Below, in pieces: positions 806 through 29,844 of a DNA stretch of 64,000 nucleotides. Origin of the DNA: a virus; the IMG/VR virus record IMGVR_UViG_3300042482_000679. One strand, written 5' to 3'. Each line of letters begins with the position of its first letter. Position 1 is the first letter of the stretch. The notes under the pieces are model-generated. The model was not told where the DNA came from and did not search any database. It saw only the letters and a list, made by a program, of their open reading frames with translations. The position numbers and the translations under genes were made by a program.

Positions 806-2485
806 TTAAGACTCTTTTCTCAAGCTTCTGTCATAATGTTCAAATCTATCGTGCTCAGTTGGGGTTGCAAATAACAATGCCGACTTGATATTACCCTTTT
901 TAGTTTCTTGGAAAATGTAACTCATCCAAGTTTGTTCAAAAGGACGGTCCCACTTTGTTGTTAAGAACATTTTCTCGTTTCCATATCTTGTAACAACTTG
1001 TGGCCAGTTACAATAATAAACTTCACCAATACCATAAGGTAATCCTTGATATGAATATACTGCGTCAAATTTAGTTCTTGGCGCATTAGGGTCTAATCCT
1101 TGAACAGGTAGGTTTGGTTTTTCAGGCCAAAACTTTTCTCTAACTGTTTGAGGAACATTATACCAAGACCATTGAACTCCATTGTCCCCAAAAAACTCAG
1201 AATAATTTAGTTTCAAAAAGTCTAATGAGTTTTCTCGGGTAATCTTCATAGACTTATTGTATAGGTCCTGAATATTTCTAATGAACCCATTTCTACAAAC
1301 AGTATCTTTACCATCATAGAAGAACATATCGTCTTCAAAGAACCAATAAAAATCAAAACCATTTTCTTGTGCGTGTTCAGCGATAAATTGTCTACCACCA
1401 CAGATACCTAAGTTATCTTTTTTAATGTGTTCAAACTCGTATAACTTACAAAGTTCCGAGTATTCCTCGGTAGTTGACAAGTCACTTGAATTATCTAAAA
1501 GATATTTCTTTTTAGGTTTTGTTAAGAAATTTTCATCATATAACTCCATAGACTTAATCAATGTTTTAAATTGATTAGGACTATTGAATGTAATTACATA
1601 GAGTGAGGTGTTATCATAATCTAAATCACTATAAGACTGTTTACCTGAAATATTTTTAACTTTATAGGTATCATTTTTAACATCTTCACAAAACTTAGAG
1701 ATAAGTCCGTTACCATCAATTTCGTGGTAATCAAACATATCGTTGTGTCTGTATAACATAATACTGAATAAAGATTCTTCAGTGCCCATTAAACCTCTAC
1801 CTAAAGTCTCACTTAAAACACTATAATAAAGACTATTAACGTCTGTTATCATACTTTTTAATCCACCAAACAAACCTCCTCTACAAACAAGTTTTACATC
1901 TTGTCCTGCGTAATCATTAATCGTTGGGTATTTGAATCCGTGAATTTCATTTTCAGCGTCATATGGGAACGCCACAAACCCAAATCTTGGAAATACCTTA
2001 TCGAATTTTTCTTGAATTTTATCGTGTGTAAAATATCCAGGATGAACCGTATTTGTAATACCTGCATCAATCCAAAACAAATGTGTGGAGTCAAATTTGT
2101 CAAATATTTTTGCATCGTGCAATACAAACATTTTTGACATAACAAGAGGGTTATACATATCAAGTTTTGCTTGAGTTGATTCTGGCAGCCATCCCGATTG
2201 ACTATACCATTCAGGGTTTGTTCTTATAGACTGAATGATTTCATAAAAATCATTTTTAAACCATTCTTGAGGTCTTACAATAAATTGGGTATTTTCATTA
2301 TTTCTATTTGGTTGTGAAAATACGAATTCTTCAAGTTCTTTATCACCAAAAATAATAAAGTTAGTGTCTTGTCTTAAAAGTTCCGAGAACTTTTGTAGAT
2401 AATGGTCAAACGACCTTGACCATCCTTCAGTCAAAGAGTCACGTTTAATATTCCAAAGTCCGGTTACAAATGTAATTTTACTCAT
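806..2485 (-). CDS. HtrL/YibB (WlaTC)-like glycosyltransferase fused to a GT-A domain
   Basis: N-term TFVTGLW, YNPLVMSK, FWIDAG; C-term NLGICGGRQ and FFEDD (DxD-like). Confidence 0.7.
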   Translation of the reverse strand: MSKITFVTGLWNIKRDSLTEGWSRSFDHYLQKFSELLRQDTNFIIFGDKELEEFVFSQPNRNNENTQFIVRPQEWFKNDFYEIIQSIRTNPEWYSQSGWLPESTQAKLDMYNPLVMSKMFVLHDAKIFDKFDSTHLFWIDAGITNTVHPGYFTHDKIQEKFDKVFPRFGFVAFPYDAENEIHGFKYPTINDYAGQDVKLVCRGGLFGGLKSMITDVNSLYYSVLSETLGRGLMGTEESLFSIMLYRHNDMFDYHEIDGNGLISKFCEDVKNDTYKVKNISGKQSYSDLDYDNTSLYVITFNSPNQFKTLIKSMELYDENFLTKPKKKYLLDNSSDLSTTEEYSELCKLYEFEHIKKDNLGICGGRQFIAEHAQENGFDFYWFFEDDMFFYDGKDTVCRNGFIRNIQDLYNKSMKITRENSLDFLKLNYSEFFGDNGVQWSWYNVPQTVREKFWPEKPNLPVQGLDPNAPRTKFDAVYSYQGLPYGIGEVYYCNWPQVVTRYGNEKMFLTTKWDRPFEQTWMSYIFQETKKGNIKSALLFATPTEHDRFEHYDRSLRKES

Positions 2486-3359
2486 CGATTTTATTTAATT
2501 CTTCTAAAATTTTATAGAAACTTTTGTTTTCAACAAAGTAACTGTCAGGGGTTTCTCTTGGAGCGTTATCTCTACACCACCAAGTATCAAAATGTTTTCT
2601 AACAAAATATTCTGAATGGTTGTAAAACATTAGTGTCATAAACAATTCTTCAGGAAAAGGTCTTTTATCCTCTTCAATAATCTTGTCAGCGTAATTCTCA
2701 AACATAGGTACTAATGTCTCCCATAATTCTCGTTTACCACCGAACATACCACCAATAATATGAATTGTTCTATCATAATTGGTATACCATTTTGGGTCAA
2801 CTGTTTGAGACCAAAAATTTCTATCATTATCTTTACCAATCAAAAAGAATTTATCTCCTGAAAATTCTACAACATTTTTTAAAAAATCATTATTAAATAA
2901 CGATGACTCATAAAACTTTCTTGGACCGTTTTCTACCGTAAGGTATTTGTTCGGTATTAATCCGCTATGTGATAAACCAGCATCAATCCAATAATAATAA
3001 TCGTATGTTTTATCTTCGTTCCACCACCAACTAAACTTTTGATATTGTATTTCAAAACATCTATCACTTTTTTTAGCGTCTTCATAGTTTTTATACTTTT
3101 GAAGTAGTGTTTCATATCTTGTGGTTCTTAAGTTAGACAACTCAAATTTTAATTTATCTTCAGATATACCATTTTCAACATAAAAGAAATTTTTTAATCT
3201 ATCAATTTCTCTTGTTGAGGTATAACACACAAAATCAGCATCGGTCATTTTTAATAGTGAGAGAAGTGAATTTAAGTAATGACCAAATCTTGATGGTCTA
3301 CCGCCTAACTCAGTCCCATATAGGTCACCGTAAATACAGGTTATAAATTTAACTGACAT
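2478..3359 (-). CDS. HtrL/YibB-like glycosyltransferase
   Basis: YWIDAG, IIGGMFGG and EE motifs shared with the N-terminal domain of 806-2485. Confidence 0.6.
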   Translation of the reverse strand: MSVKFITCIYGDLYGTELGGRPSRFGHYLNSLLSLLKMTDADFVCYTSTREIDRLKNFFYVENGISEDKLKFELSNLRTTRYETLLQKYKNYEDAKKSDRCFEIQYQKFSWWWNEDKTYDYYYWIDAGLSHSGLIPNKYLTVENGPRKFYESSLFNNDFLKNVVEFSGDKFFLIGKDNDRNFWSQTVDPKWYTNYDRTIHIIGGMFGGKRELWETLVPMFENYADKIIEEDKRPFPEELFMTLMFYNHSEYFVRKHFDTWWCRDNAPRETPDSYFVENKSFYKILEELNKIDE

Positions 3360-4086
3360 AATAATATTCTTTATGAATGTTTTCTTTTTTCATTGTTTTA
3401 TTGTTTACGTTATTCATAAACTCATTAGGTATTTTTACCTCACTATAAAGGTTCCAATTGTATGTTTGACCGTAAAAATTATTACACATTTGTTGTGAAA
3501 CGTCTGACCAGTCATTAGTAATTTGTGGTGCTATGGGTAGAATTGGGCAATAACTTTGTTTTTTTAAATATACTTTTTGATATATGTAATCATCCACTGC
3601 GTAAAATCTTCTACGTTCATCTTCTTCTATGGAAATAACATCATCATATGATGATTCGTGATACAATATCATATTTGTTGCAAAAATACCTCTGTGTTCA
3701 GGAGACGCTGGTGGTAGATTAGTAATATCATTTAATAGTGGGTGTTTTTCGCTCCTATTAACATATCTATTTAAAGTTGGTGCCAAGTTAAAAACTGCGT
3801 ATTCAAGACTTTGACACTCATCTTCGATTGCTTTTAATAAAGATTTTGCATACGGCATAACAACACAATCATCTTCAATAATAAGAACTTCTTTATATCC
3901 TCTTTCTTTCGCAATTTTTAAAATAGCCGTGTGGGAAAGTGTACAACCCACGTGGCTATTAGTATCAACCGCCTTGAATAACTCAAAATCCCATTCAAGA
4001 TATTCCATTTCTTTTTTAATGGATTCTAATCTATCAGGTCTTCTTTCAAGATTTACTACAAATTTTGGTATTGTATTGAACTTCAT
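3349..4086 (-). CDS. GT25-like glycosyltransferase
   Basis: VVNLERRPDR, GCTLSH, LIIEDD motifs. Confidence 0.8.
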   Translation of the reverse strand: MKFNTIPKFVVNLERRPDRLESIKKEMEYLEWDFELFKAVDTNSHVGCTLSHTAILKIAKERGYKEVLIIEDDCVVMPYAKSLLKAIEDECQSLEYAVFNLAPTLNRYVNRSEKHPLLNDITNLPPASPEHRGIFATNMILYHESSYDDVISIEEDERRRFYAVDDYIYQKVYLKKQSYCPILPIAPQITNDWSDVSQQMCNNFYGQTYNWNLYSEVKIPNEFMNNVNNKTMKKENIHKEYYYVS

Positions 4087-4089
4087 TTT

Positions 4090-5337
4090 TTAAAGATTTC
4101 CTGTTAATCTATCACACCAACCCTTAGATTCTGAGTGAGGCCATACAACCCAATATTTAGGTTTTTCTGCTGTTTGGAATTCTCTCCATACTTTACAATA
4201 TCCATCAGGGTCTCTTAACATTGAAGTAATTTCATTTTTATCAGCGTCTTTTCTAAAGATTGTTTCATCATTTTCATTGTGGAACGCAACCACCCAAAAA
4301 TCATAATCTTTTTCAGGTACTGAAGAATAACCAATATCAATACAGTGTTTGAATACTTGTGCGAAATCGGCTTTCCAATCATCTTCAGACTCATAATTGT
4401 ATGGATTTGGCGGATATTTTTTATCAATTGTGTATTGCTGAACAGCTCTTTTTTCAAATAAAAGACCCGCATATTTTTCATAATCTCTTAAACTTCTAAC
4501 GGTACCAAAGCCATAAGGACCATCGTGACCTTCTTGAGTTTCACCGTCCATACCAAACAACTTTCTATTTGTTAAGTGTGAGTGATTATTTTTATTAACC
4601 CATTCTTTGTCATCATCCCATTGTTTTGTTCTTCCTTTACGAGTATACTCGTGCCAAATTAATGTTTTATGTGGGTGAAACAAATCATAACCCCAAGTAT
4701 ATGCTCTTGCGGCGATTGAAATTTCTTCTCCGTGGAAGTAATATTCGGGATTGTGTTGTACCTCGTTTGAGAATTCACCTAATGTAAAACAATAGTGTGC
4801 AGAATAGAATCTTGCGGGGATTGGTTCTTTTAAATCTTGCCAACCAGGAATTGTTTCAGGTAAGAAAAATACCGCACCTTCAGGAATAAATCTATCAAAA
4901 ACCATTCTCCAAGGGTCTTGAACTCTACCTGCAGGGTCGTTTTCAGGGTCAAATGATGAAACATATCCTGTTAATAAAGGTTTTTTATGACCTTTCTTTT
5001 GAAGTTGTTTAATCATCTTAATCATCTCGTCATCCCAATTAGGTGCGAACCTCATATGTGAGTCAATTTGTAGGGTATATTCTTCACCCTCATAAAGTTG
5101 TTGTGTTAAGTTTCTAGCCCAACAAACGCCTTTAGATTCTTCGTGTGGAATATCTAAAACTCTGAATCTTTTATCCCCTTCAAATTCTTCTAAACTGTCA
5201 AATTTATCATCGGGGTGAAATTGTCTTGCAATACCAAATCTAATATTTTTTGGTTTTTTAGCATTTTCCAACATATTCTTAATTGTTGGAACGAGTTGTG
5301 GGTCTCTATAGGACGCAATTTGAACAAAAATTTTCAT
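4090..5337 (-). CDS. GT60/GlcNAc-family polypeptide alpha-N-acetylglucosaminyltransferase-like protein
   Basis: IFVQIASYRD, GVCWAR, LQIDSHMRF (DSH), FHGEE, RAYTWGYD, WHEY motifs typical of the Skp1/Gnt GlcNAc-transferase family. Confidence 0.85.
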   Translation of the reverse strand: MKIFVQIASYRDPQLVPTIKNMLENAKKPKNIRFGIARQFHPDDKFDSLEEFEGDKRFRVLDIPHEESKGVCWARNLTQQLYEGEEYTLQIDSHMRFAPNWDDEMIKMIKQLQKKGHKKPLLTGYVSSFDPENDPAGRVQDPWRMVFDRFIPEGAVFFLPETIPGWQDLKEPIPARFYSAHYCFTLGEFSNEVQHNPEYYFHGEEISIAARAYTWGYDLFHPHKTLIWHEYTRKGRTKQWDDDKEWVNKNNHSHLTNRKLFGMDGETQEGHDGPYGFGTVRSLRDYEKYAGLLFEKRAVQQYTIDKKYPPNPYNYESEDDWKADFAQVFKHCIDIGYSSVPEKDYDFWVVAFHNENDETIFRKDADKNEITSMLRDPDGYCKVWREFQTAEKPKYWVVWPHSESKGWCDRLTGNL

Positions 5338-5350
5338 TACACTTTTTTTT

Positions 5351-5386
5351 AAAAAATAAAAAACCCTCCAATAAAGTGGAGGGTTT
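5351..5386 (-). terminator. Intrinsic terminator after the mucin-like genes
   Basis: AAACCCTCCA-ATAAAG-TGGAGGGTTT hairpin followed by a U-tract on the minus strand. Confidence 0.8.
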
Positions 5387-5414
5387 ATATGAAAGTTGTT
5401 TTAAATAATTTGAA

Positions 5415-6734
5415 TTAACATCCGTTAGGGTCTGTCTGAACAATAACTCCTGAAGAATCTGTTCTGTACCAAGCGGTACCGTTAGACCAATATGCAACTC
5501 CTACAGGGTTTGATAATGGGTCAATTGTTTGATATAATGTCTCACCTAAGTTTGGTCCTACACCACCTGATACCGAACCATAAACTGTAATAGGACTAGC
5601 CGCACAAGCTAAGTTAGCGGTTGAGCCTGATGATAACGAGTAAACATAATTATTTCTTGTTGGTGTTGGTGTTGGTGTACTTGTTCCTGTGTTAGTTGGT
5701 GTTTGAGTATTAGTTGGAGTATTAGTTGCGGTATTAGTTGGTGTTTGAGTATTAGTTGGTGTTGGTGTGTTAGTTGCTGTTTGTGTTGGTGTTGGTGTTA
5801 ATGTTGGACATATTGAGAATCCATTTAATTCATAACCTGCAGAATCTAACTCAACAACTTGACCCGAATTCTGATAGAAACCTGACATATCAGTTGTTAC
5901 AGGTCCTGAAGGAGAATCATAGAAGAAAATATTTTGGTCAAAGAATTGATTTATACCATATATCTCAATAGACGTACCGTAATTACCACAAGCATCAAGG
6001 GCATTATTTGCGAAATTCACGGCAAATTGGAATCTAGCAGGTTCAGTTGTTGATGGTGTTGGAGTTGGTGTTTGAGTATTAGTTGCGGTGTTTGTTGGTG
6101 TTTGAGTAATAGTTGGTGTTGGTGTGTTAGATGATGTGTTGGTTGGAGTATTAGTCGGGGTTTGAGTTTGGGTACTAGTCGGAGTGTTAGTTGGTGTTTG
6201 TGTATTTGTAGGTGTTTGCGTTGGTGTACCTGTTTGAGTATTTGTTGGTGTTTGTGTTTGAGTTGATGTATTTGTTATAGTATTAGTCGGTGTCTGAGTT
6301 GGTGTATTTGTTGCGGTATTAGTTGGTGTTTGTGTTTGGGTATTACTTGGTGTGTTAGTTACAGTATTTGTTGGTGTATTAGTTACAGTATTTGTTGGTG
6401 TTGGTGTAGGCGTTTTGGTTTGAGTATTAGTTGGGGTTTGAGTATTAGTTGCGGTGATAGACGGTGTTGGAGTTGGGGTTCTTGTATTAGTTGGTGTTGG
6501 AGTATTAGTCGCAGTTTGAGATGGTGTTGGTGAAATAGGAGGGAATGTCTCCTCAACAATAGTAAATTGTGCTGATAAAGCAGCTTGAAACGTACCATTA
6601 ACCAACCAAATATTTCGTACTTGACCAGGTGTTAATAAGATATCGTATTCCCACATATTGTTGGAACACTCTTGATAAGAGAAAGTTAATCCCTGAGCTG
6701 TGTTATTAGTTAGTATGTATTTTTTACAAGCCAT
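5415..6734 (-). CDS. Mucin-like Thr/Pro-repeat protein with small Cys-containing domains (putative virion fibre/decoration)
   Basis: Long TPTNT/TPTQT tracts separating three small globular domains; no signal peptide. Confidence 0.7.
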   Translation of the reverse strand: MACKKYILTNNTAQGLTFSYQECSNNMWEYDILLTPGQVRNIWLVNGTFQAALSAQFTIVEETFPPISPTPSQTATNTPTPTNTRTPTPTPSITATNTQTPTNTQTKTPTPTPTNTVTNTPTNTVTNTPSNTQTQTPTNTATNTPTQTPTNTITNTSTQTQTPTNTQTGTPTQTPTNTQTPTNTPTSTQTQTPTNTPTNTSSNTPTPTITQTPTNTATNTQTPTPTPSTTEPARFQFAVNFANNALDACGNYGTSIEIYGINQFFDQNIFFYDSPSGPVTTDMSGFYQNSGQVVELDSAGYELNGFSICPTLTPTPTQTATNTPTPTNTQTPTNTATNTPTNTQTPTNTGTSTPTPTPTRNNYVYSLSSGSTANLACAASPITVYGSVSGGVGPNLGETLYQTIDPLSNPVGVAYWSNGTAWYRTDSSGVIVQTDPNGC

Positions 6735-7343
6735 TTTAGTAGTTCTTTATTATTAAATATCATCAATATGTTATTAACAACTGCCAGTGTCTATAATAAC
6801 TCCTGACCCGTTAGTTTGGATATAATTATGCCCATCAGAATAGAATGATGCTTCAGTTGTTGAGGTCATTGCAAAATTTAAATAAACAATATCACCATTA
6901 ATCAAATTTGAAAATAGTTTTGTCGAATATCTTGGTGCATTTCCCTGTGGATAGTTATTACAAGCATTTACCGACAAAGTATCATCAATCCCTAAATCAG
7001 AATATTCAAACACTACTTGTGTTGGGGTTGGAGTCGGGGTTGATGTACGTGTTGGTGTTACTGATTGTGTTGGAGTAGGAGTTAACGTTGGAGTAACTGA
7101 TGGCGTTGGTGTATTAGTCGGAGTCTGAGATGGTGTTGGTGAAATAGGTGGAAACACTTCTTCAGTGATTGTGAATTGTGCCTCTAAAGCCGCTTGAAAA
7201 GTTCCGTTAACTAACCAAATATTTCTAACTTGACCAGGTGTTAATAAGATATCGTATTCCCACATATTGTTGGAACATTCTTGATAAGAAAAAGTTAAAC
7301 CTTGTGAGGTGTTGTTTGTTAAAGTATATTTTTTACAAGACAT
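6513..7343. repeat. Direct repeat of an N-terminal domain: 6513-6734 vs 7122-7343
   Basis: Near-identical ~74-aa N-termini; 50-nt identical core at 6619-6668 and 7228-7277. Confidence 0.9.
6774..7343 (-). CDS. Short mucin-like Thr/Pro-linker protein, paralog of 5415-6734
   Basis: Shared N-terminal domain, TP linker, related C-terminal AC...SG..C domain. Confidence 0.7.
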   Translation of the reverse strand: MSCKKYTLTNNTSQGLTFSYQECSNNMWEYDILLTPGQVRNIWLVNGTFQAALEAQFTITEEVFPPISPTPSQTPTNTPTPSVTPTLTPTPTQSVTPTRTSTPTPTPTQVVFEYSDLGIDDTLSVNACNNYPQGNAPRYSTKLFSNLINGDIVYLNFAMTSTTEASFYSDGHNYIQTNGSGVIIDTGSC

Positions 7344-7352
7344 AATATTTTA

Positions 7353-9260
7353 TTAACTATTTAAACAAGTTATACAATTATTCCAAGGACCCGATATAAC
7401 GTCTGCGAATGTGGTTACTGTTGCAGTTGTTGTTGATATTATCGTGTAACAAGAAACACCATCATTAATTACATCTAATTTATAGATTTTACCCGTCTGT
7501 AAAGTATCATAAATACCAAACTGACCAACAAATCCTGAAGAACAATCTTGTACTAAATATTTTTTAGCCCCTTGAGGTGTGTCAGTAGGTGTTACTGACG
7601 GTGTATTTGTATTTGTTGGTGTTGGACTTGCGGTATTAGTTGGAGTCTGTGTTTGTGTTGGAGTCTGTGTTTGTGTTGTTGTATTAGTTGGGGTTTGTGT
7701 TGGAGTATTTGATGCCGTGTTTGTTGGTGTCTGTGTTGCGGTATTAGTTGGTGTCTGTGTTTGTGTTGCCGTGTTAGTCGGAGTTTGAGTCGGAGTTTGA
7801 GTTGAGGTATTGGTTGGTGTATTTGTTGCAGTATTTGTTGGTGTTTGAGTTGGTGTTGGCGTATTACTAGCAGTATTAGTTGGTGTCTGAGTAGGTGTGT
7901 TGGTGGCAGTGTTTGTTGGTGTTTGAGTTGCGGTATTTGTTGGAGTATTTGTTGGTGTTTGAGTAGGTGTATTTGTTGCGGTATTAGTTGGAGTGTTAGT
8001 TGCAGTATTAGTTGGTGTCTGAGTTGGTGTATTTGTTGCAGTATTAGTTGGGGTATTTGTTGCTGTGTTTGTTGGAGTCTGAGTCTGAGTTGGAGTTTGA
8101 GTTGGTGTAGGTGTGTTGGTTGCGGTATTAGTCGGAGTTTGAGTTTGGGTAGGTGTATTTGTTGCTGTGTTAGTTGGAGTCTGAGTTTGAGTTGGAGTTT
8201 GAGTTTGGGTTGGTGTTTGGGTAGGTGTAGGTGTAAGTGTTACGCATATTGAATACCCACCTGTTTCATTACCTGATGAATCCAACTCAACAACTTGTGC
8301 AGATTGTTGGTAGTAACCTGTCATATCAACGGTTACTGGACCTGACGGAGAATTGTAGAAGAAATTGTTTTGGTCGAATATAGTTTCAATACCATATATG
8401 GTAGTTGATGTTCCATAATTACCACAAGCCTCATCATATGTACCACCTTTGATAACTGAGAACGCATATCTTGGTGGTTCACTTGGGGTTGGAGTTTGTG
8501 TTTGTGTTTGTGTCGGAGTTTGTGTTTGTGTCGGAGTTTGTGTTTGTGTCGGAGTTTGTGTTGGAGTCTCTGTATTAGTTGGTGTTTGGGTTGGTGTTGA
8601 ACCTAATGTAGATGTTGGTGTCTGAGTTGGTGTAGATGTTGGTGTGTTTGTCGCAGTATTAGTTGGTGTGTTTGTTGCGGTATTAGTTGGTGTGTTTGTT
8701 GCGGTATTAGTTGGCGTATTTGTCGCAGTATTAGTTGGTGTGTTTGTTGCGGTATTAGTTGGCGTATTTGTTGCGGTGTTAGTTGGCGTATTTGTTACCG
8801 TATTAGTTGGAGTTTGTGTCGGAGTATTTGTATTACTTGGAGTTTGAGTTGGGGTTGAACCTAAAGTTGACGTTGGTGTTTGAGTAGGTGTAGGTGTCTG
8901 TGTGTTTGTAGGTGTCTGTGTGTTTGTAGGTGTTTGAGTTGCAGTATTTGTTGGCGTCGGCGTATTAGTTGTTGTATTAGTAGGTGTTGTTGTTGGTGTA
9001 ACAGTCATTGTTGGCGTACTCGTACTAGTTACCGTAGGCGTAGGTGTTGGGCTTACTGGTGGAACCGTAACTTCTAAAGTGTAAGTGTAGTCATATGTTG
9101 GAATGTACATTTCAAACACACCATAATAGTATGATGAAATATAATTAAATGGTATTACTTGCGTACCCAAATCTATTGTACCCCCCGAAGCAGGTAGATA
9201 CGTTACTTCAGCGGTTTGACCACTTAAATTATTACTTAAAATTCTAATTCCAATTGCCAT
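7353..9260 (-). CDS. Large mucin-like Thr/Pro-repeat protein
   Basis: Two very long TPT tracts; internal domain shared with 5415-6734; C-terminal domain shared with 53366-55039. Confidence 0.7.
   Translation of the reverse strand: MAIGIRILSNNLSGQTAEVTYLPASGGTIDLGTQVIPFNYISSYYYGVFEMYIPTYDYTYTLEVTVPPVSPTPTPTVTSTSTPTMTVTPTTTPTNTTTNTPTPTNTATQTPTNTQTPTNTQTPTPTQTPTSTLGSTPTQTPSNTNTPTQTPTNTVTNTPTNTATNTPTNTATNTPTNTATNTPTNTATNTPTNTATNTPTNTATNTPTSTPTQTPTSTLGSTPTQTPTNTETPTQTPTQTQTPTQTQTPTQTQTQTPTPSEPPRYAFSVIKGGTYDEACGNYGTSTTIYGIETIFDQNNFFYNSPSGPVTVDMTGYYQQSAQVVELDSSGNETGGYSICVTLTPTPTQTPTQTQTPTQTQTPTNTATNTPTQTQTPTNTATNTPTPTQTPTQTQTPTNTATNTPTNTATNTPTQTPTNTATNTPTNTATNTPTQTPTNTPTNTATQTPTNTATNTPTQTPTNTASNTPTPTQTPTNTATNTPTNTSTQTPTQTPTNTATQTQTPTNTATQTPTNTASNTPTQTPTNTTTQTQTPTQTQTPTNTASPTPTNTNTPSVTPTDTPQGAKKYLVQDCSSGFVGQFGIYDTLQTGKIYKLDVINDGVSCYTIISTTTATVTTFADVISGPWNNCITCLNS
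8636..8810. repeat. 24-bp coding tandem repeat (TPTNTATN units)
   Basis: About seven degenerate copies of GTGTGTTTGTTGCGGTATTAGTTG. Confidence 0.85.
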
Positions 9261-9291: not shown

Positions 9292-11277
9292 TTATAAAAT
9301 GTCATAAGATAAATCGTTATTTGGTAATAATGTATAATTCAGGTCATTATTCGGAAGTAATACGAAACCTAAATCGTTATCAGGTATTGATATGTAATAG
9401 AAGTCATTTGCCGGTATAACAATAGTACAATCAATACAATCAGTATCTAATAAATCATACTTATTTTTTAGTAACCTAAAATTGTGTCTAATTTGTGACG
9501 CATCCAAAGGTTCGGTATACATTCTAAACGCACTGATATCACCAATGAAACTACCACCAAAAATCTCTTCTAAATGTATTTCAGTTGTTAAACCTGAATA
9601 GATTGTGTGTTCCAAATCATAATCAGTCAAACACTCAGGGTCTTGTTGATATGTAATTGCCGACAATGTCGGAGCACATCCACCCGAAAAAGTTAAGTTG
9701 TCTTTTAATCCTTGAGTTCCCCCACCTAATGAAATGTTGTATGGAACCCCAATTTGTTTTTCTTTATATGTGTTTAATGGTCGAGCAACAATTTCTTCAA
9801 AATCATCGATAATCATAAATTGTTTACCGTTAACATAAACATAAAGTTTACCTAACCTGTATTTTCTTTGTTGAATCCAATAATCGTTAATTTCAACAAC
9901 ATCCGTTGTTGCGGGAACGTCTTTAGGGTTGTGTGTAATTGGGGGTTCAATTAGGGAGACGCTATTGTTTGCTGTGGTTGCGGTATAAATCTCAGTGACC
10001 AATTGTCCTAATCCACCAAGAGAATATTGGTCCTTACAATCTAACCAATCATTTCTTCTAAACACAACATCAATTTGAACCCAGTGTTCCACATTTGGAT
10101 ATGTTGTTCCTGTACATCCATCAAAAATTCCTTTTGATGAACACCACTCGATTACCGTGGTTCCTGTTACAAATGTTGTTCCTGTTTCACAAGTTCCCGT
10201 TGTAACACAAGAACCCGTTATTAGATACTCTTTAACACAGACTTTAGGGTTACCAGTATCACCGCTAAGTCTAACTGACATACCGTTTGAAACCCCGTCA
10301 TATAACGGGTCTAGTTCAGGATATTCGGCTTTAACCTCACACTGACAAGCACATCCACAACTACAGTTTTTGGATGTTCCTCCTGACATTTGATAAACGT
10401 GAATACACTGATTTGAATTTGTGTAACCTGTTTCGTGACAAAGACAAGTTTTCATACAAGTCAAACCTGATGTTACTCTTGTATATCCTGTGTCACTTTC
10501 AGGACTTCCGTCAGGATAGTGATAAAATTTATTTTCGGCTCTTGTCCCCAAATAGAAGAAGGTACCTTTGTTATTTGGGTATCTATTATTAATACCGACA
10601 CTTGTATCACCTGTCCATCTGTATTTTAATAAAAACTCAGCGGTCCAACCTTGATTAGTTCTAACAGGGAATGTATCATAATCGTATCCTTGTAATTTAA
10701 AAAACCCTTGGAAGAATCCTCCGTTAAGTGTTGCCACGGTTCCGATACGACCGCCAGCATTAGACCAACTTAAATTATAGTTATATGAGTTGTCATTCCA
10801 CAATCTGTTTGAAGGAGTTGTACTACCAGTAATTGGATGCATTTTAAATCTCCTATCGTACTTGTATCTGTTATATGTTTCGGCGGTTGTTGTGTACAGT
10901 CCTGTCGTAATGTCTATTGAAACCCCTGACATTTGTAATGTCAAACCATTGTCAATTCCTGTAAGTCCTACGTCACACAATGTTGACGCACAAACACAAA
11001 AGTTTGGGTCAATGTTTTTTGGGTTGTAATAATTTTCAGAAACTATTGTGTCATATAAAAATTCGTTTCTTAAAGGAGCAATTGTTGTTCCAGTAGAATT
11101 GAAATCAAATTTCAAAGGCATTCTATTACCATCATCTTCAGCGATTAGAAATGGTGAAAAGATAACCTCTTGGTTATAATCTTTTTCGTCAGATGCTAAA
11201 CAAAAATCAGTTACTTGGTTTACCGGTAGTAATCCAATTCTACGATAATTGTATTGATTAATATTTTGATATGCCAT
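9292..11277 (-). CDS. Cys-rich LamG/concanavalin-like virion protein
   Basis: KLYVYVNGK...ISLGGG...FIGDISAFRMYTEPL..SQI LamG-type ending; four 10-aa xPxNDL repeats at the C-terminus. Confidence 0.6.
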   Translation of the reverse strand: MAYQNINQYNYRRIGLLPVNQVTDFCLASDEKDYNQEVIFSPFLIAEDDGNRMPLKFDFNSTGTTIAPLRNEFLYDTIVSENYYNPKNIDPNFCVCASTLCDVGLTGIDNGLTLQMSGVSIDITTGLYTTTAETYNRYKYDRRFKMHPITGSTTPSNRLWNDNSYNYNLSWSNAGGRIGTVATLNGGFFQGFFKLQGYDYDTFPVRTNQGWTAEFLLKYRWTGDTSVGINNRYPNNKGTFFYLGTRAENKFYHYPDGSPESDTGYTRVTSGLTCMKTCLCHETGYTNSNQCIHVYQMSGGTSKNCSCGCACQCEVKAEYPELDPLYDGVSNGMSVRLSGDTGNPKVCVKEYLITGSCVTTGTCETGTTFVTGTTVIEWCSSKGIFDGCTGTTYPNVEHWVQIDVVFRRNDWLDCKDQYSLGGLGQLVTEIYTATTANNSVSLIEPPITHNPKDVPATTDVVEINDYWIQQRKYRLGKLYVYVNGKQFMIIDDFEEIVARPLNTYKEKQIGVPYNISLGGGTQGLKDNLTFSGGCAPTLSAITYQQDPECLTDYDLEHTIYSGLTTEIHLEEIFGGSFIGDISAFRMYTEPLDASQIRHNFRLLKNKYDLLDTDCIDCTIVIPANDFYYISIPDNDLGFVLLPNNDLNYTLLPNNDLSYDIL

Positions 11278-13910: not shown

Positions 13911-15128
13911 ATGTCAAAAATTAATGTTTTATGTGTCCCATCTGACCGTTCAGGTGTTGGCAAATTCAGGTCGTTAGACCCCCACATTTTTCTTCAAAAT
14001 CAATATCCCGAGGATTTTTTTGTTGAGATTGATTACAATCCACCTATGAATGATTTGAATTTCTATAAGAAATTCCAAATTGTACATTTCCATAGAAGTA
14101 TCACAGGAGACTTTGATGCATCTAAAAAGTTAGTTGAGGAACTAAATAAAATGGGTGTTATCACAATTTGTGATATCGATGACTATTGGATGCCAAGCAA
14201 AGACCACCCAATTCACGATGTTATTATGTATAATAAAATCAATGAAAGAATTGTTGAAAGTCTTAAAGGGGCACAATACGTAACAACAACCACCACTTTA
14301 TTCGCAGATGAAATTAAAAAGATTAATAAAAATGTGTTTGTATTACCAAACGCAGTTAATCCCGAAGAACCACAATTCAAAGAAGTAACACCCGAATCTG
14401 ATAGACTCAGAATTGGTTGGTTAGGTGGTTCATCACATATGGGTGATTTGAAGTTGTTAGACAACTCATTTAATAAATTACTCCAATTCAAAGATAAAGT
14501 TCAATATGTTCTTTGTGGGTTTGACACAAGAGGTACGATTACTGAAATTAACGGTCAAACAGGTGAACAGAAGAAAAGACAAATTCTTCCTCACGAAACT
14601 GTGTGGGCTAGATACGAAGAAATCTTTACACAAAACTATAAAGTTGTTTCAGAAGATTTTAAAAATCATTTGATGAAGTTTGAACAAGGTGAAAAACCTG
14701 AGTTTTTAGGGGAGGGTTACCGTCGTGTTTGGACACTTCCTGTTACATCATATGCTAAAAATTATTCTAAGATGGACGTTTCATTGGCCCCAATCAAAAA
14801 CCATATGTTTAACAGAATGAAGTCTCAACTTAAAGTTATTGAGGCGGGATTCTATAAAAAAGCTGTTGTGGCGTCTGATTTGGGTCCCTACACACTTGAT
14901 TTGACACACTCATTAGACAAACACGGTAAGTTTACAGATGGTAACGCGCTACTAGTTAGTGAATACTCAAACGCTCACGATTGGGCTAAATATTTGGAGA
15001 AATTAATCAAAAACCGTAATTTTGCTACTGACTTGGGTGAGAGATTGTATGAGTCTGTTAAAGACAAATATGATTTGAAAAATGTCACTAAAGACCGAGC
15101 AGAATTGTACAAAAGTTTAATTAAATAA
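13911..15128 (+). CDS. GT-B (GT4-like) glycosyltransferase
   Basis: DIDDYW, IGWLGGSSH, FNRMKSQLKVIEAG, VVASD. Confidence 0.8.
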   Translation: MSKINVLCVPSDRSGVGKFRSLDPHIFLQNQYPEDFFVEIDYNPPMNDLNFYKKFQIVHFHRSITGDFDASKKLVEELNKMGVITICDIDDYWMPSKDHPIHDVIMYNKINERIVESLKGAQYVTTTTTLFADEIKKINKNVFVLPNAVNPEEPQFKEVTPESDRLRIGWLGGSSHMGDLKLLDNSFNKLLQFKDKVQYVLCGFDTRGTITEINGQTGEQKKRQILPHETVWARYEEIFTQNYKVVSEDFKNHLMKFEQGEKPEFLGEGYRRVWTLPVTSYAKNYSKMDVSLAPIKNHMFNRMKSQLKVIEAGFYKKAVVASDLGPYTLDLTHSLDKHGKFTDGNALLVSEYSNAHDWAKYLEKLIKNRNFATDLGERLYESVKDKYDLKNVTKDRAELYKSLIK

Positions 15129-15129
15129 T

Positions 15130-15849
15130 ATGATTAAGATTCCATTACCTAAAATTCTTTTTCTTGACATTGAGACTGTCGGACTAACAAAAGACTATGA
15201 CCATTGCAAAAAGGAATACCCAAAAATTGCCGAACAATTTGATAAGTATTTTGATTGGTTTTTGAAAAGGTTCCCTGAAGACCAACTGATTGGTAAAAAC
15301 GAAGATGAACAAAAAAATCTTGTGTTTTCTTCACGAGCAGCTTTGGTTCCTGAATTTGCAAAGATTGTTTGTATCAGTGTTGCGTTTGTTATGGAAAATG
15401 GTGATATTAAGAAACAAACATTCCACAACGATAATGAACAACACTTGTTGGTGGATTGTCAAAAGTTACTTGACCGTTGTGGTAGATTAGAATTTTGGTT
15501 GTGTGGACATAACCTTAAGAACTTTGATATTCCTATGATGGCAAAAAGAATGATTATCAACGGATTAATGCCACCATCAATCTTACCGTCTTATGACACA
15601 AAACCTTGGGAGATTAGAGCGATTGACACCAAAGAAATTTGGCAATACGGTGCATACACAGCAATTGGTTCTTTGGACCTTATGTGTACCTGTATGGACG
15701 TTCCATCTCCTAAAGAAGGTGAGGTTACAGGGGCTAAGGTTCACGACGCGTATTGGAATAAAGGTATGTTAAAAGAAATTGCCGAATATTGTGAAAGAGA
15801 TGTTCAGGTATTAATTGATGTTGTTCAAAAATTAAAAGCACTTATATGA
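15130..15849 (+). CDS. 3'-5' exonuclease (PolB exo-like, DEDD)
   Basis: FLDIET, GHNLKNFD, YCERDV motifs. Confidence 0.85.
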   Translation: MIKIPLPKILFLDIETVGLTKDYDHCKKEYPKIAEQFDKYFDWFLKRFPEDQLIGKNEDEQKNLVFSSRAALVPEFAKIVCISVAFVMENGDIKKQTFHNDNEQHLLVDCQKLLDRCGRLEFWLCGHNLKNFDIPMMAKRMIINGLMPPSILPSYDTKPWEIRAIDTKEIWQYGAYTAIGSLDLMCTCMDVPSPKEGEVTGAKVHDAYWNKGMLKEIAEYCERDVQVLIDVVQKLKALI

Positions 15850-16454
15850 TTGATTTTGAATCAGACCCAGAATTAAACGATGAGATTAAAAGACTCTTCG
15901 ACGAAATTAAAAATTTTAAAGACGAGAATGATGATGAGGATTTGATGTCCGAAATTGAATCCCGTTTAGGTTTACCTTTTGACGAATTTGAAAAGTTATT
16001 AGGGGACGCCTTAACAAAAAAACCATTGTTCTATAAAAAACTACACGAAGATGCTGTAGACCCAAAGTACGCATATGAAACCGATTCAGGTTTTGATTTA
16101 CACAGTGTAGAAGAAATCCATTTCTTACCATTTGAACGTAAGTTAGTTCCAACAGGATTATCATTTGATATTCCTGAAGGTTTTGAAATTCAAGTAAGAA
16201 CTAAAAGTGGGTTGGCAATTAAACAAGGACTTATGGTTTTGAATAGTCCTGGAACTGTAGACCAAGGATACACAGGTGAGGTCAAAGTTATTCTAATGAA
16301 TATGAATAATATGGCGGTTACCGTTGAAAAAGGACAGAAGGTTGCTCAAGGCGTTTTATGTCCTGTAGAATCAGGTAAAAAAGTTTCTTTGGTGGAAGAT
16401 GAATTTGAGGATAAAGAACGTGGTTCAAATGGATTTGGTTCAACAGGAATTTAA
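15846..16454 (+). CDS. dut: dUTPase with acidic N-terminal extension
   Basis: SGFDL, RTKSGLA, NSPGTVDQGYTGE, RGSNGFGSTG. Confidence 0.95.
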   Translation: MIDFESDPELNDEIKRLFDEIKNFKDENDDEDLMSEIESRLGLPFDEFEKLLGDALTKKPLFYKKLHEDAVDPKYAYETDSGFDLHSVEEIHFLPFERKLVPTGLSFDIPEGFEIQVRTKSGLAIKQGLMVLNSPGTVDQGYTGEVKVILMNMNNMAVTVEKGQKVAQGVLCPVESGKKVSLVEDEFEDKERGSNGFGSTGI

Positions 16455-16464
16455 AAAATAAGAT

Positions 16465-18084
16465 ATGATTACTATTGGATATTCTACCCGAGAAAGTAAA
16501 CCTGAGTTTATTGAATACTTAAAAACCTCATCAGGTTATGCCAAAAATGTTAGGGTTATTGAGAAAGTTAATAATGGTGAAAAATCACTATCACAAGTTT
16601 ATAATGAAATTTTAAATGAAAGTGAAACTGATATTGTAATCTTTTGTCACGATGATATCTATTTTGATAGTACTGGATGGTATCATAAAATACTAAAACA
16701 TTTTGAAAAAACAGATTACGGAATTTTAGGTGTTGCTGGTACCAAATTTATGAGTGAAAATGGTACTTGGTGGTCCGACAGAAGAAAGATGTATGGTGTT
16801 GTTAATCACGAAAGTGGGGGTAAAAAATGGGAATCAAAATACTCCACATCATTAGGAAACGGTATCGATGATGTTGTTGTTCTTGACGGTGTTTTTTTAG
16901 TGGTTCATAAGAATAGAATTAATCATAACTTTGTCGAAGAATTTGAGGGATTTCACTTCTACGATATTCCATTTTGTTTTGAGAACTTTTTAAGTGGTGT
17001 AAAACTTGGTGTTATGTATAACGTAAGAATTACTCACAAATCAGTTGGTATGACTAACGAACAATGGGAGATAAATCGAAAAAAATTCGAGGAAAAATAC
17101 AATCAACATCTACCACAAAAATTGGCATTAGACCCTAAGACAAAATTAAAGATTTTGTTTACTTGTTTATCATTTAAAACATTGACAGGTTCTGAACTTT
17201 ATGTATACCAATTAGCCAAGTCACTTAAGAAAATGGGACACGATGTTTCTGTTATGTCAGAAATTGGTGGTCCTTTAACTGATATGGCAAAAAAAGATGG
17301 TATCAAAGTTTATTCAATTAGAGAACCTTTGGGCTATAAATTAGGAGATGGAAAGTGGAGTTTTCAAAATGGTGAAATTTCACAACCAAATGTCCTATAC
17401 CCTGTTGGAGAATTGATGGTAGATTTAATTCACACTCAACACAAACCAATCACAGAACATATTTGTAGACTTTATCCAAACATACCAAAAATATCCACAA
17501 TACATTCTGAAGTAATTGATTTGGAAATTCCATATGTTCACGAATCTATTAAAAAATACATTGCAATCAGACCTGAAATTAAAGATTATTTGATTACTGA
17601 ACACTCAATCGACGAGGAAAAAATTAAAGTAATTTACAACCCAATTGATAATACAAAATTTAAATCATCGACAACAAGTGAGGATTATGTTCTGTTTGTC
17701 GGTACTTTAGATTATTTGAGAAAAAATACAATTTTTGATTTAGTTGAGAAAACTAAAGAAAGGGGTTTGAAATTAGTGGTTGTTGGTGAAGATAAATCAA
17801 TTTATTTAAACGAATTAAAAAGTCACTCTCACGTAGAATATTATCCTGCGACTTGGTCGGTTGAGAAATATGTTTCAAAGTGTAAAGAAACTGCAGGTAT
17901 TCAATTAGGGAGAACAACTATTGAAGGTTGGATTTCAGGTAAACCAGGTTGGATTTATAAAGTCGATGCTCAAGGGAATATAATGGATATTGAGTATCAC
18001 GAACCCCCAACTGATGTGGATAAATACTATTCGGAAAATGTTACTAAACAAGTAATTGATGAATATCTTTATTCGGTAGTTTAA
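16465..18084 (+). CDS. GT-A (glycosyltransferase-like) plus GT-B fusion
   Basis: FCHDDI, LDGVF, FHFYD in N-term; GSELY..LAKSLKKMGHDV and VIYNPID in C-term. Confidence 0.75.
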   Translation: MITIGYSTRESKPEFIEYLKTSSGYAKNVRVIEKVNNGEKSLSQVYNEILNESETDIVIFCHDDIYFDSTGWYHKILKHFEKTDYGILGVAGTKFMSENGTWWSDRRKMYGVVNHESGGKKWESKYSTSLGNGIDDVVVLDGVFLVVHKNRINHNFVEEFEGFHFYDIPFCFENFLSGVKLGVMYNVRITHKSVGMTNEQWEINRKKFEEKYNQHLPQKLALDPKTKLKILFTCLSFKTLTGSELYVYQLAKSLKKMGHDVSVMSEIGGPLTDMAKKDGIKVYSIREPLGYKLGDGKWSFQNGEISQPNVLYPVGELMVDLIHTQHKPITEHICRLYPNIPKISTIHSEVIDLEIPYVHESIKKYIAIRPEIKDYLITEHSIDEEKIKVIYNPIDNTKFKSSTTSEDYVLFVGTLDYLRKNTIFDLVEKTKERGLKLVVVGEDKSIYLNELKSHSHVEYYPATWSVEKYVSKCKETAGIQLGRTTIEGWISGKPGWIYKVDAQGNIMDIEYHEPPTDVDKYYSENVTKQVIDEYLYSVV

Positions 18085-18135
18085 AGTCCTTATTTATTTT
18101 TACTAAAAAATTATTATTTTAGTATAAAAATTAAT

Positions 18136-20112
18136 ATGATAGTTCTTACAACAACATATAATTGTGAAAATTTTGTAGAAAGGTCTTTACTGAGTATAAT
18201 GAGTCAACGTTTTAAAAACTTTACTTGTTATATTACTGATGATATGTCTACCGACAATACAGTGTCAATAATCAAAGAGACTATTAAGGGTGACGATAGA
18301 TTTGTATTGATTGAAAATACAAAAAAGATGTATCAACCAGGAAATTACGACCAAGTAATCAGAGGTTTAAACATACCTGATGATGAGGTTTGTGTTGAAG
18401 TAGATGGTGATGATTGGTTACCTAATTCAAATGTATTAGGGTTTATTGACGATGTTTATAAAAACCCTGATATTTGGATGACAAGTGGTTCATTTAAGTA
18501 TCACGATGGTAGACTTGGTTTTGCAAAAAAACCACATAATTTATTAGACATTAGAAAACAAACTTTTACCCTAACGCATTTAAGAACTTGGAAATCTTGG
18601 TTATGGAAAAAAATTGAGCAGTCTGATTTAATGGATTCTAATGGCGAATATTGGTCGGTTGCTGGGGATTTATCATTTATGTTTCCAATGGTTGAGATGT
18701 CAGGCGAAAAACACTTTAAGTTCATACCTGAAATTTTATACGTCTATAACGAATCAAACCCGTTAAATGACCATAAAGTTAATATGTCAGTTGTGAATAA
18801 TACAACGTCAATAATTAGGAATAAGAAACCATACAAAAGATTATCAGGTTCCGAATCAACAAACCCACACGATTTAATTACAAATCAAAGATTTGATGTG
18901 ATTGTTAAATATCTTTACGCACAATCTATAATTAAAAATTATCAGACAGATACGTACAAAAATTTATACAAAGAACATTTAATAAAATGGAATAATTGTT
19001 TTGAAATTTCAAACCCATCAAAAAATTCATTCGAGGTATTTGACAATACTTTTAAAGATATTATCACTAATATAAGTGAGAATGGATTTGACCCACAAAT
19101 ATCAAAAATCCCTGTGGTGAATGATAAATATATTGTTAATGGTGCTCACAGATTGGCCGCGAGTTTAGCTTTAAATAAGAATGTTTTTACTGAAGAATCT
19201 ACAAGTATTAAAGACGGTCAACTAATTTGTTCTTGGGAGGGTGAATTCAAAAAATTAAATTTAAGTGAAACTCTATGTGATAGAGTTGCTCTTGAATACG
19301 CAAAATTAAAAAATAACACTTATATTGTTAGCGTTTTTCCATCAACAGGAGGGAATATCGAAGTACCTCTTTCTATTCTAAAAAAATACGGTTCTGTATT
19401 TTATTACAAACAAATAAAATTAGAAAAGAACGGTCCTCTAAACTTTATGAGAGAGTTATATGCCGGTGAACAATGGGCTGGTAATCATCAAAACAATTAC
19501 ATTGGTTATAGACAGAAAGAAGGTTTGTGTTTTACACAAAACGCACCTGTAACAATCTTCTTAGTTGAATTTGATAGTGTTGAGCAGTCTGTAAGAGCTA
19601 AAGAAGAAATTAGGAATCGTTTTAATATAGGAAAACATTCTGTTCATATAAATGACACTCACGACCAAACTATCAGACTTTCACAATGTGTATTTAATCA
19701 GAACTCAATAAAATTTATGTGTGATAGTACCCCATCAGATTACAGAAAATTTGATGGTTTATTAAATAGTTTTAAAAAATATATTGAGGATAATAATTTA
19801 GATATTGATGAATATGCGGTAACCGCAAGTTCAATACTATCAATCTATGGTCTTAGAGAAGGTAAAGACTTAGATTATATCCACACAAAATCAGCACCGT
19901 TAATTAAAGTAAGTGATGATATACAATCTCATAATTCATATGGTATTGGTAGATATGAACTTAATTATGATGAAATAATTCACAATCCAGTTAATCATTT
20001 CTATTCGAGAGGGGTCAAATTTGTTTCCCCAAAAATAATAAAAGATATGAAAGAAAAGAGGAACGAACCGAAAGATATTAACGATATAAACCTATTAAAT
20101 AGTATATTGTAA
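18136..20112 (+). CDS. GT2 glycosyltransferase fused to ParB/Srx-like and nucleotidyltransferase-like regions
   Basis: TYN, DDMSTD, VDGDDW; later IVNGAHRLA and LSIYGLREGKDLD. Confidence 0.7.
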   Translation: MIVLTTTYNCENFVERSLLSIMSQRFKNFTCYITDDMSTDNTVSIIKETIKGDDRFVLIENTKKMYQPGNYDQVIRGLNIPDDEVCVEVDGDDWLPNSNVLGFIDDVYKNPDIWMTSGSFKYHDGRLGFAKKPHNLLDIRKQTFTLTHLRTWKSWLWKKIEQSDLMDSNGEYWSVAGDLSFMFPMVEMSGEKHFKFIPEILYVYNESNPLNDHKVNMSVVNNTTSIIRNKKPYKRLSGSESTNPHDLITNQRFDVIVKYLYAQSIIKNYQTDTYKNLYKEHLIKWNNCFEISNPSKNSFEVFDNTFKDIITNISENGFDPQISKIPVVNDKYIVNGAHRLAASLALNKNVFTEESTSIKDGQLICSWEGEFKKLNLSETLCDRVALEYAKLKNNTYIVSVFPSTGGNIEVPLSILKKYGSVFYYKQIKLEKNGPLNFMRELYAGEQWAGNHQNNYIGYRQKEGLCFTQNAPVTIFLVEFDSVEQSVRAKEEIRNRFNIGKHSVHINDTHDQTIRLSQCVFNQNSIKFMCDSTPSDYRKFDGLLNSFKKYIEDNNLDIDEYAVTASSILSIYGLREGKDLDYIHTKSAPLIKVSDDIQSHNSYGIGRYELNYDEIIHNPVNHFYSRGVKFVSPKIIKDMKEKRNEPKDINDINLLNSIL

Positions 20113-20115
20113 AAT

Positions 20116-20715: not shown

Positions 20716-20718
20716 ATT

Positions 20719-21506: not shown

Positions 21507-21507
21507 A

Positions 21508-22913: not shown

Positions 22914-22915
22914 TT

Positions 22916-24702: not shown

Positions 24703-24739
24703 TTCTTTTTTTTAAAATAAAACCTTTTATATTTTTAAA

Positions 24740-25995: not shown

Positions 25996-25996
25996 T

Positions 25997-26533: not shown

Positions 26534-26534
26534 T

Positions 26535-28979: not shown

Positions 28980-28980
28980 A

Positions 28981-29843: not shown

Positions 29844-29844
29844 T

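Follow-up and report, generated by a model that had tools for sequence, protein, structure and literature searches.

A candidate cytoplasmic mucin-type O-glycosylation system encoded by a freshwater jumbo phage

Mucin-type O-glycosylation is regarded as a process of the eukaryotic secretory pathway, and it is established that chloroviruses, giant viruses and some actinobacteriophages glycosylate their own virions. Serine-rich-repeat adhesins of Gram-positive bacteria receive their first O-linked N-acetylhexosamine (HexNAc) in the cytoplasm from GtfA/GtfB and are extended stepwise by soluble glycosyltransferases (GTs) encoded beside the substrate, the primer being a GT-B (GT4) pair and export proceeding through the accessory Sec system. 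In Dictyostelium, the acceptors of GT60 enzymes are PTVT-type repeats. Here we describe a 64,000-nucleotide stretch of viral DNA (IMG/VR record IMGVR_UViG_3300042482_000679), hereafter called the window, in which genes for proteins with long Thr/Pro (TP) tracts lie next to the gene of a GT60-type enzyme and three further putative GT genes. GT60 enzymes initiate mucin-type O-linked N-acetylglucosamine (GlcNAc) on Ser/Thr-rich domains in protists, and the family is related to GT27 and has no GT27 lectin domain (PMC8724618). We read the locus, with a probability of roughly 0.55, as a phage-encoded cytoplasmic system for mucin-type protein O-glycosylation, a reading that draws on the family and the fold of the lead enzyme, on gene linkage and on one staining experiment in a relative. 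The features concerned are collected in Table 1.

Table 1. Features of the glycosylation locus and of related positions (window coordinates unless another genome is named)
Feature	Position	Strand	Basis or remark
GT60/PF11397-type GT-A enzyme, 415 aa	4090-5337	-	Pfam GlcNAc PF11397 E 1.5e-66; phrog_24687 E 1e-166
GT25-family glycosyltransferase, 245 aa, candidate extender	3349-4086	-	PF01755 E 4.1e-15
293-aa protein, weakly HtrL-like, candidate extender	2478-3359	-	BLASTP E 0.002 to the HtrL domain of 806-2485
HtrL fusion: two-domain enzyme, 559 aa, HtrL_YibB N-domain and GT-A-like C-domain	806-2485	-	Pfam
TP439	5415-6734	-	39% T+P
TP189	6774-7343	-	26% T+P
TP635	7353-9260	-	49% T+P; phrog_15511
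661-aa protein heading the TP gene row	9292-11277	-	labelled a late protein
Fourth TP-tract protein, 557 aa	53366-55039	-	within the half of the window that holds the head genes; terminase gene about 3.7 kb away
Intrinsic terminator between TP and GT genes	5351-5386	-	10-bp stem (5361-5386), 5 G-C pairs, T run
TATTTAT examples	794, 9267, 11288, 43520, 44571, 46006, 47907, 55053, 61992	-
Glycan-enzyme island	13911-31708	+	Pfam
XacN1 module (L003): ORF334, GT60 (48%); ORF332, 293-aa homologue (31%); ORF330, HtrL fusion (39%)	XacN1 216551-223508

Profile and structure searches placed the lead enzyme with polypeptide transferases. The PF11397 match, a Pfam family corresponding to CAZy GT60, reached 225.7 bits against a cut-off of 21 and covered profile positions 2-44 and 97-351, and in an alignment of 39 homologues (35-54% identity) residues D92, H94, H229, E204 and E205 were invariant, the complete D92-S93-H94 and G203-E204-E205 motifs and H229 being invariant or nearly so. 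By analogy with GT27, D92, H94 and H229 probably form the metal site. The AlphaFold2 (AF2) model, with a predicted local distance difference test (pLDDT) score of 95.8, adopted a GT-A fold with an extra beta-rich C-terminal domain at about residues 325-414. In a Foldseek search with this model, the top matches in the PDB were almost all GT27 polypeptide N-acetylgalactosamine (GalNAc) transferases (GalNAc-T1/T2/T4 and TgGalNAc-T3), and VIA-align, which is independent of Foldseek, gave Z 20.9 for mouse GalNAc-T1 (root-mean-square deviation 3.7 over 278 aligned residues) and Z 19.8 for TgGalNAc-T3, with the next GT-A family at Z 17.0, i.e., 3-4 Z units lower. Searching the PDB by sequence and by the 39-sequence profile returned no match. 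The PF11397 family is large (4563 representatives at 50% identity; over 7000 close relatives), and in BFVD the label 'Glycosyltransferase, GlcNAc' is already attached to proteins of uncultured phages and giant viruses. Sequence and model together make the enzyme a candidate polypeptide HexNAc-transferase that may prime Thr.

The putative acceptors are three co-oriented TP genes upstream of this enzyme (TP635, TP189 and TP439, named by length) and a fourth TP protein encoded elsewhere in the window, and these four modular proteins were the only T/P-rich open reading frames (ORFs) of the window. In the three adjacent ones, modules of 60-80 residues are strung on long, mucin-like TP tracts of about 40-217 residues, in which T+P makes up 0.55-0.77 over intervals of 30-60 residues. 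TP635 consists of an N-terminal module, a 196-residue tract, a Cys-pair module, a 217-residue tract and a C-terminal Cys module; TP439 of an N-terminal module, a 161-residue tract, a Cys-pair module, a 44-residue tract and a C-terminal Cys-pair module; and TP189 of an N-terminal module of the same family as that of TP439, a 41-residue tract and a C-terminal Cys-pair module, while the fourth protein and the C-terminus of TP635 have a Cys module in common. TP635 and TP189 are 9 nt apart and therefore probably co-transcribed. Thr codons in the TP genes were mixed, all four being used (78/25/105/19 in TP635), which points to selection at the protein level and not to a DNA repeat, and in an alignment of 18 TP439 sequences the Cys pair of each module was invariant and tract lengths varied. 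We also considered that the TP ORFs might be DNA-repeat artefacts, and rejected this because of the mixed Thr codons and of the invariant-Cys modules kept in the 18 homologues. In the AF2 model of TP439, block-mean pLDDT was about 77-94 for the middle and C-terminal modules and mostly below 50 for the tracts; compared with 48,161 chains, the whole model scored Z 5.1 at best, on the poorly modelled N-module only, and the well-modelled modules gave no match above noise, which does not by itself make their fold new. The TP proteins had neither a hydrophobic N-terminus nor a membrane-spanning stretch (maximum Kyte-Doolittle 19-mer at most 1.16), and thus no secretory signal of the kind carried by mucin-like proteins, so any glycosylation of them would be cytoplasmic.

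Gene neighbourhoods provided circumstantial evidence that enzyme and tracts belong together. Within the lineage of this phage, compared over 80 IMG/VR contigs whose GT60 was 78-100% identical, a TP-rich ORF stood directly upstream of GT60 in most contigs, a position that could be plain synteny; in one sub-group (L039/040/043-045/047-049/061), however, a TP gene lay downstream of the HtrL-fusion gene instead. Comparison of more distant loci supported a GT60-T/P linkage that goes beyond the synteny of one phage lineage. In L108, whose GT60 was 57% identical, gene order was swapped and a 966-aa TP/STP ORF was found at 1.6 kb. In five Gemmatimonadaceae loci (L094-L097 and L099; GT60 50-55% identical, GC 67-70%), GT60 and the HtrL fusion were each time immediately preceded by an ORF for a PqqD-domain protein (Pfam E 1.5e-7) whose last 60-110 residues form a T/P/S tail; in L097 the locus is surrounded by ordinary bacterial genes on a contig of 1.17 Mb. 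In two metagenome-assembled genome (MAG) loci labelled Saprospiraceae/Bacteroidia (L086 and L088) and one of Lewinellaceae (L093), with GT60 61-71% identical, the divergent neighbour of GT60 and HtrL was a long S/T/P-repeat protein (L086:8504-9649, L088:2684-3412, interrupted by unresolved sequence, and L093:7997-9751, all on the minus strand); these neighbours appear to carry an RR-type leader, and the C-termini of those in L086 and L093 look like sorting domains of the type IX secretion system (T9SS). The pair of GT60 and HtrL fusion thus stands beside T/S/P-rich proteins in about five lineages.

The Gemmatimonadaceae cluster has features of its own. At L097:6233-12972, and likewise in L094, L095, L096 and L099, NTP_transf_5 fused to a 293-aa-protein homologue comes first, followed by a P-loop protein with no Pfam match, the PqqD-domain protein with its T/P/S tail, GT60 and the HtrL fusion, and the PqqD-domain protein contains an RRRxxVKLLAxxPLFPAIQ segment. 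The cluster looks like a peptide-modification system, similar to those of ribosomally synthesized and post-translationally modified peptides, or like a glycoprotein system.

At the level of whole genomes, in a crude control, a pattern coding for TPTPTPT was found in all five PF11397-positive records (8, 19, 7, 16 and 6 matches, against 0 for the reversed control) and in none of five PF11397-negative large phages totalling 1.66 Mb, which were picked as nearest by terminase. Since the positives belong to only two lineages (G001-G003, and XacN1 with RAS14), the co-occurrence is supportive, not decisive. IMG/VR scans with single distant representatives of the family retrieved 0 loci for P0203 and 1 locus for P0164.

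The relatives in culture add the staining evidence. GT60 of Xanthomonas phage XacN1 and Stenotrophomonas phage RAS14 was 45-48% identical to that of the window, and the XacN1 module, in which the homologues of three of the window's enzymes are assembled, lies a few kb from baseplate wedge genes; ORF325, a 3313-aa product with a PT tract, follows those wedge genes at about 3 kb from the module, and many further P/T tracts are scattered over the genomes of both phages. Purified XacN1 virions showed Schiff-positive glycoprotein bands, and two phage GTs including ORF334, the GT60 homologue, were proposed by the authors to make the virion glycoproteins (PMC5852040). Between its GT60 and 293-aa homologues XacN1 has a gene for a 765-aa carbamoyltransferase, whose place in the module suggests carbamoylated sugars in the glycan of that phage. 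Taken together, the recurrence of the GT60-TP pairing in other phages and in bacteria implies that the phage of the window probably sugar-coats its own fibre proteins.

The partner enzymes differed in how constantly they accompany GT60. The HtrL_YibB domain (PF09612) of the HtrL fusion matched at E 7e-11 (42.6 bits against 24.1, residues 3-253), its Gemmatimonadaceae homologue scored 50.5 bits, and the C-terminal domain had sub-threshold profile matches only. This fusion, at 39-63% identity, was adjacent to GT60 or a few genes off in IMG/VR relatives, MAGs, L108, XacN1 and RAS14, and because it stayed close to GT60 in all lineages examined, GT60 and the HtrL fusion form the conserved core. The genes of the GT25 enzyme and the 293-aa protein were variably present among relatives, GT25 in only a part of them. 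The PF01755 match of the GT25 enzyme (56.6 bits against 24) had its best stretch over profile positions 64-134 of 199 only. The 293-aa protein had no Pfam match at E 0.01, PF09612 included, and has WIDAG and GGxFGG motifs in common with the HtrL domain of the fusion; XacN1 has a homologue of it (31%), and Gemmatimonadaceae have one fused to NTP_transf_5.

On the minus strand the locus runs from the 661-aa gene through TP635, TP189, TP439, the terminator, the PF11397 enzyme, GT25 and the 293-aa protein to the HtrL fusion, which is followed by a 125-aa protein and the start of the DNA polymerase gene. A sequence-only reading of 806-9260 had described most of this, and much of it held: all the genes lie where it had put them, the products of the three co-oriented TP genes have no hydrophobic leader, the GT60/GlcNAc enzyme with DSH and GEE motifs was borne out by the PF11397 score and by the conservation of both motifs, its proposed kinship with animal polypeptide GalNAc-transferases reappeared in the fold comparison, the GT25 was confirmed by PF01755, a terminator scan recovered the terminator, and enzymes and TP proteins alike look soluble, with no membrane segment, as expected of cytoplasmic products. 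Co-occurrence of GT60 with TP genes, which that reading had proposed to check, was likewise found, beyond one phage lineage and in five records against none (the positives coming from two lineages). Of the two GTs called HtrL-like, only the fusion carries a recognizable HtrL_YibB domain, the 293-aa protein having merely the weak BLASTP resemblance given in Table 1, and the extent of the system had been drawn too small, since the 661-aa gene, the fourth TP protein and the island all lie outside it.

A promoter-like motif ties part of this set to the head genes. TATTTAT occurred 11-38 nt upstream of the start codon in 16 of 72 genes, against a background of 0.005 per 40 nt inside genes, an enrichment of about 50-fold over gene interiors, and may be a late-promoter element. 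The genes that carry it include those of the portal, the prohead protease, the neighbour of the major head protein, TP635 (distance 13 nt), the 661-aa protein (17 nt before the ATG) and the fourth TP protein (20 nt); none was found upstream of the GT genes. Together with analogy, this motif in common with head genes hints that the TP proteins are virion parts. The 661-aa protein, whose neighbours in the ESM Atlas include viral Laminin_G_3 clusters (a lead only), probably has a concanavalin/LamG-like part. It was 97.7% identical over 659 aa to its homologue in the nearest relative, G001 (L005:3340-6036), which continues into a 60-residue TP linker and an extra domain of 178 aa; the window copy ends exactly where the linker would start, so that a whole C-terminal cassette differs between near-identical strains. 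Tract lengths and module sets of the TP proteins also varied widely among close relatives. Exchangeable fibre tips would be expected to vary in just this way in their cassettes, tracts and modules.

Beyond the locus, the window belongs to the genome of a jumbo phage and has its genes for prohead protease, portal, major head protein and large terminase at 40-50 kb. Complete relatives measure 295-309 kb, and the nearest IMG/VR record is a 115-kb fragment rated 38% complete. IMG/VR held 548 related stretches, and at least 90% of sampled words of the window were present in 18 lake or freshwater metagenome runs. A Bacteroidota host is plausible from sequence relationships, the closest bacterial homologues being in Saprospiraceae MAGs and the closest cultured large terminase (TerL) in a Flavobacterium phage. 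RNA-library contigs from four freshwater metatranscriptome studies matched pieces of the HtrL-fusion, 293-aa, GT60, TP439 and TP189 genes with 0-3 differences; no listed piece spans 5327-5402. Since such contigs prove neither transcription nor a lack of it, and DNA carry-over is possible, these matches were counted neither for nor against any reading. ARAGORN located a tmRNA gene at 62027-62422 (+), with a tag peptide ending in VAVA, and tRNA-Ser(TGA) at 62901-62988 (+), and a double AAA+ chaperone of the ClpB/Hsp104 type is encoded at 57076-59076 (+) (AAA_2 E 6e-71, ClpB_D2-small).

A glycan-enzyme island on the opposite strand probably supplies and decorates sugars. It encodes a GT4-like enzyme, a GT2_5+GT4 fusion, two GT2 and a GT10-like enzyme; a sulfotransferase, an adenosine 5'-phosphosulfate (APS) kinase, two methyltransferases and a fusion of HAD with sugar-1-phosphate nucleotidyltransferase; and a DegT-like fragment of 198 aa and a GDP-mannose 4,6-dehydratase (E 4e-115). 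Interleaved with these are a PolB-exonuclease-like gene, a dUTPase gene and PhoH. No membrane-spanning segment was predicted in the enzymes of the GT locus, in those of the island or in the TP proteins, all of which appear soluble, and 1-32 kb contained no polyprenyl-phosphate transferase, flippase or polymerase. The absence of lipid-linked steps fits the elaboration of a soluble acceptor; it would also be compatible with action on lipid-linked intermediates of the host.

Several observations weigh against a mucin-type system. The TP genes are cut off from the GT genes by the terminator, XacN1 and RAS14 have no T/S/P-rich ORF right next to GT60, and the linkage count draws on few and partly related lineages. 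A GT60 domain fused to a TP stretch occurred in only one of 150 family representatives (P0138), too little to use. P/T linkers are common and often unglycosylated, and the globular modules of TP439 had no recognizable virion fold in the structure search. The leaders and T9SS-like ends of the Saprospiraceae and Lewinellaceae neighbours would require glycosylation before export. The claim that the phage builds its own mucins is favoured by enzyme family, fold and linkage, which is association only; transfer, the donor sugar, its linkage, the modified sites and the virion location in this phage are all things that we infer. The adjacent GT island, finally, fits remodelling of the host envelope equally well (PMC7824862).

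That last point leads to the most serious rival, in which the GT genes and the island remodel surface polysaccharide, lipopolysaccharide (LPS) or capsule of the host, serving superinfection exclusion or receptor masking, and the TP proteins are ordinary fibre proteins whose P/T linkers are unglycosylated and whose genes merely adjoin. The GT25 and HtrL_YibB families take their names from LPS loci, the GDP-mannose dehydratase, GT10-like enzyme, sulfotransferase and methyltransferases of the island are of the kind met in O-antigen and capsule loci, the terminator sets the TP genes apart, and a published survey reads GT clusters of jumbo phages in this way (PMC7824862). We nevertheless consider it unlikely, because the initiating transferase, flippase, polymerase and any membrane protein are missing from 1-32 kb, because the lead enzyme folds most like polypeptide transferases, and because GT60 and HtrL keep company with T/S/P-rich proteins in lineages whose hosts are quite different; the genome-level contrast of five records against none speaks against it as well. 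If the acceptor is a protein, it might still be one other than the TP proteins, such as a capsid, tail or host protein: GT60 includes Skp1-specific enzymes that act on a single residue, and the glycoprotein bands of XacN1 carry no protein identification. No T/P-rich stretch was present in the major head protein (40154-41959), in the products of adjoining genes or in those of the other head genes, and the recurrent neighbour of GT60 was always a T/S/P-rich tract, whether on PqqD, T9SS-type or phage modules, which leaves this alternative improbable, more so than envelope remodelling. Least credible is hypermodification of phage DNA, with glycosylated hydroxymethyl bases guarding against restriction. 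The C-domain of the HtrL fusion weakly matches a TET-associated GT (TAGT; E 4.8e-4, 20.6 bits against a cut-off of 27.5) and a PHROG of T4-type DNA glucosyltransferases (E 1.4e-5), and the DNA polymerase gene is a neighbour of the locus both in the window and in XacN1, but both matches are below threshold and span only 35-60 residues of the generic GT-A core. A TAGT or T4 alpha/beta-GT profile combined with a hydroxymethyl-base pathway, as would mark a DNA-glycosylating GT, was not found; a thymidylate-synthase-like (ThyA-like) gene was present in one complete relative and absent from another (98% complete), no TET/JBP match was obtained in a search in which the controls were also silent, and polypeptide transferases are the closest kin of the lead enzyme.

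Under the glycosylation reading favoured here, events could run as follows. Presumably late in infection, the phage would produce a family of modular proteins in which small disulfide-type beta modules are joined by TP tracts. The soluble GT60-type enzyme, with its DxH...H metal site, would use a UDP-HexNAc donor, most likely UDP-GlcNAc, and put the first sugar on Thr of TPT(N/Q/A/V)T repeats. Its constant partner, the fusion of HtrL and GT-A domains, would extend the glycan; the 293-aa and GT25 enzymes, which vary in presence, might add to it, as probably would GTs of the island, and the island could provide deoxy-sugar, methyl and sulfate decorations. This would yield bottle-brush stalks that are stiff, resist proteases and, if extended, measure tens of nm; they would carry exchangeable end modules on the virion and act as adhesion or host-range fibres or as a shielding coat.

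A bolder proposition, which we hold tentatively and with less conviction than the system in this phage, is that GT60 and HtrL/GT-A form a two-enzyme module, widespread in the prokaryotic world, by which Thr/Pro tracts receive mucin-type O-glycans in the cytoplasm. Its bacterial users would act on the PqqD proteins with TP tails in Gemmatimonadaceae and on S/T/P-repeat surface proteins in Saprospiraceae and Lewinellaceae, and the abundant lake jumbo phages would combine it with fucose-type, methyl and sulfate chemistry of their own into a glycocalyx of exchangeable virion fibres. Such a module might be the bacterial-world counterpart of eukaryotic mucin-type glycosylation, possibly a relative of its ancestor. 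If true, mucin-type chemistry would be extended to the prokaryotic cytoplasm and a function given to the large, unnamed PF11397 family; and as the phage lineage is common in lakes, glycan-coated fibres could bear on host range, particle stability and losses to grazing or adsorption in freshwater.

Set against described systems, the phage enzyme is closest in sequence family to the GT60 enzymes of protists (Dictyostelium, Trypanosoma cruzi and the Skp1 GlcNAc-transferase), with which it has PF11397, the DxH and GEE-type motifs and the absence of a ricin-type lectin domain in common. Protist acceptors are Thr-rich, Pro-containing repeats (PMC8724618), like the TP tracts. Protist enzymes of the mucin type sit in the Golgi membrane and act on secreted proteins, whereas the phage enzyme is soluble, would act in the bacterial cytoplasm, and differs further in its own beta-rich C-terminal domain and its fixed HtrL + GT-A partner, being known from sequence and model. 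The GT27 enzymes (GalNAc-T1, 8v9q; GalNAc-T2; TgGalNAc-T3, 8uhv) are its best structural matches (Foldseek E 2e-10), with the same GT-A fold and DxH motif, but identity is only 10-14%, the lectin domain is missing and the Pfam family is different. Primer and accessory Sec genes like those of serine-rich-repeat adhesins are not present here. As in actinobacteriophages and in chloroviruses and giant viruses, virus-encoded cytoplasmic GTs would act on the virus's own structural proteins, independently of the secretory glycosylation of the host. In actinobacteriophages, according to PMC12619734, which cites Freeman et al. 2023, glycans sit on the C-terminal ends of capsid and tail-tube subunits; no such C-terminal extension was found here, where the head protein and its neighbours lack T/P-rich stretches, and the candidate acceptors are instead separate modular proteins with long mucin-like tracts, served by a lead enzyme of GT60 type.

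XacN1 comes nearest as a whole, with homologues of GT60, the 293-aa protein and the HtrL fusion; it differs in that its module includes a carbamoyltransferase, lacks GT25 and has no long TP genes beside it, its P/T tracts being shorter and scattered, one of them in the giant ORF325, whereas those of the window are long and adjoin the GT genes. The sequence-only reading had claimed that no mucin-type GT60 pathway was described in phages. This stands insofar as we found no paper linking GT60/PF11397 to Thr/Pro tracts in phages or bacteria, and the studies of huge phages and of moraphages that were consulted are silent on a GT60/TP module; it needs qualifying insofar as the study of XacN1 had already proposed that phage GTs make virion glycoproteins (PMC5852040), and as GlcNAc labels are already in place on viral proteins in BFVD. 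Self-glycosylation by viruses and mucin-type initiation by GT60 are thus each known, and their combination is not described in the literature searched. The new elements, relative to all of these systems, are a soluble GT60 and HtrL pair and its tie to Thr/Pro tracts, in phages and bacteria alike.

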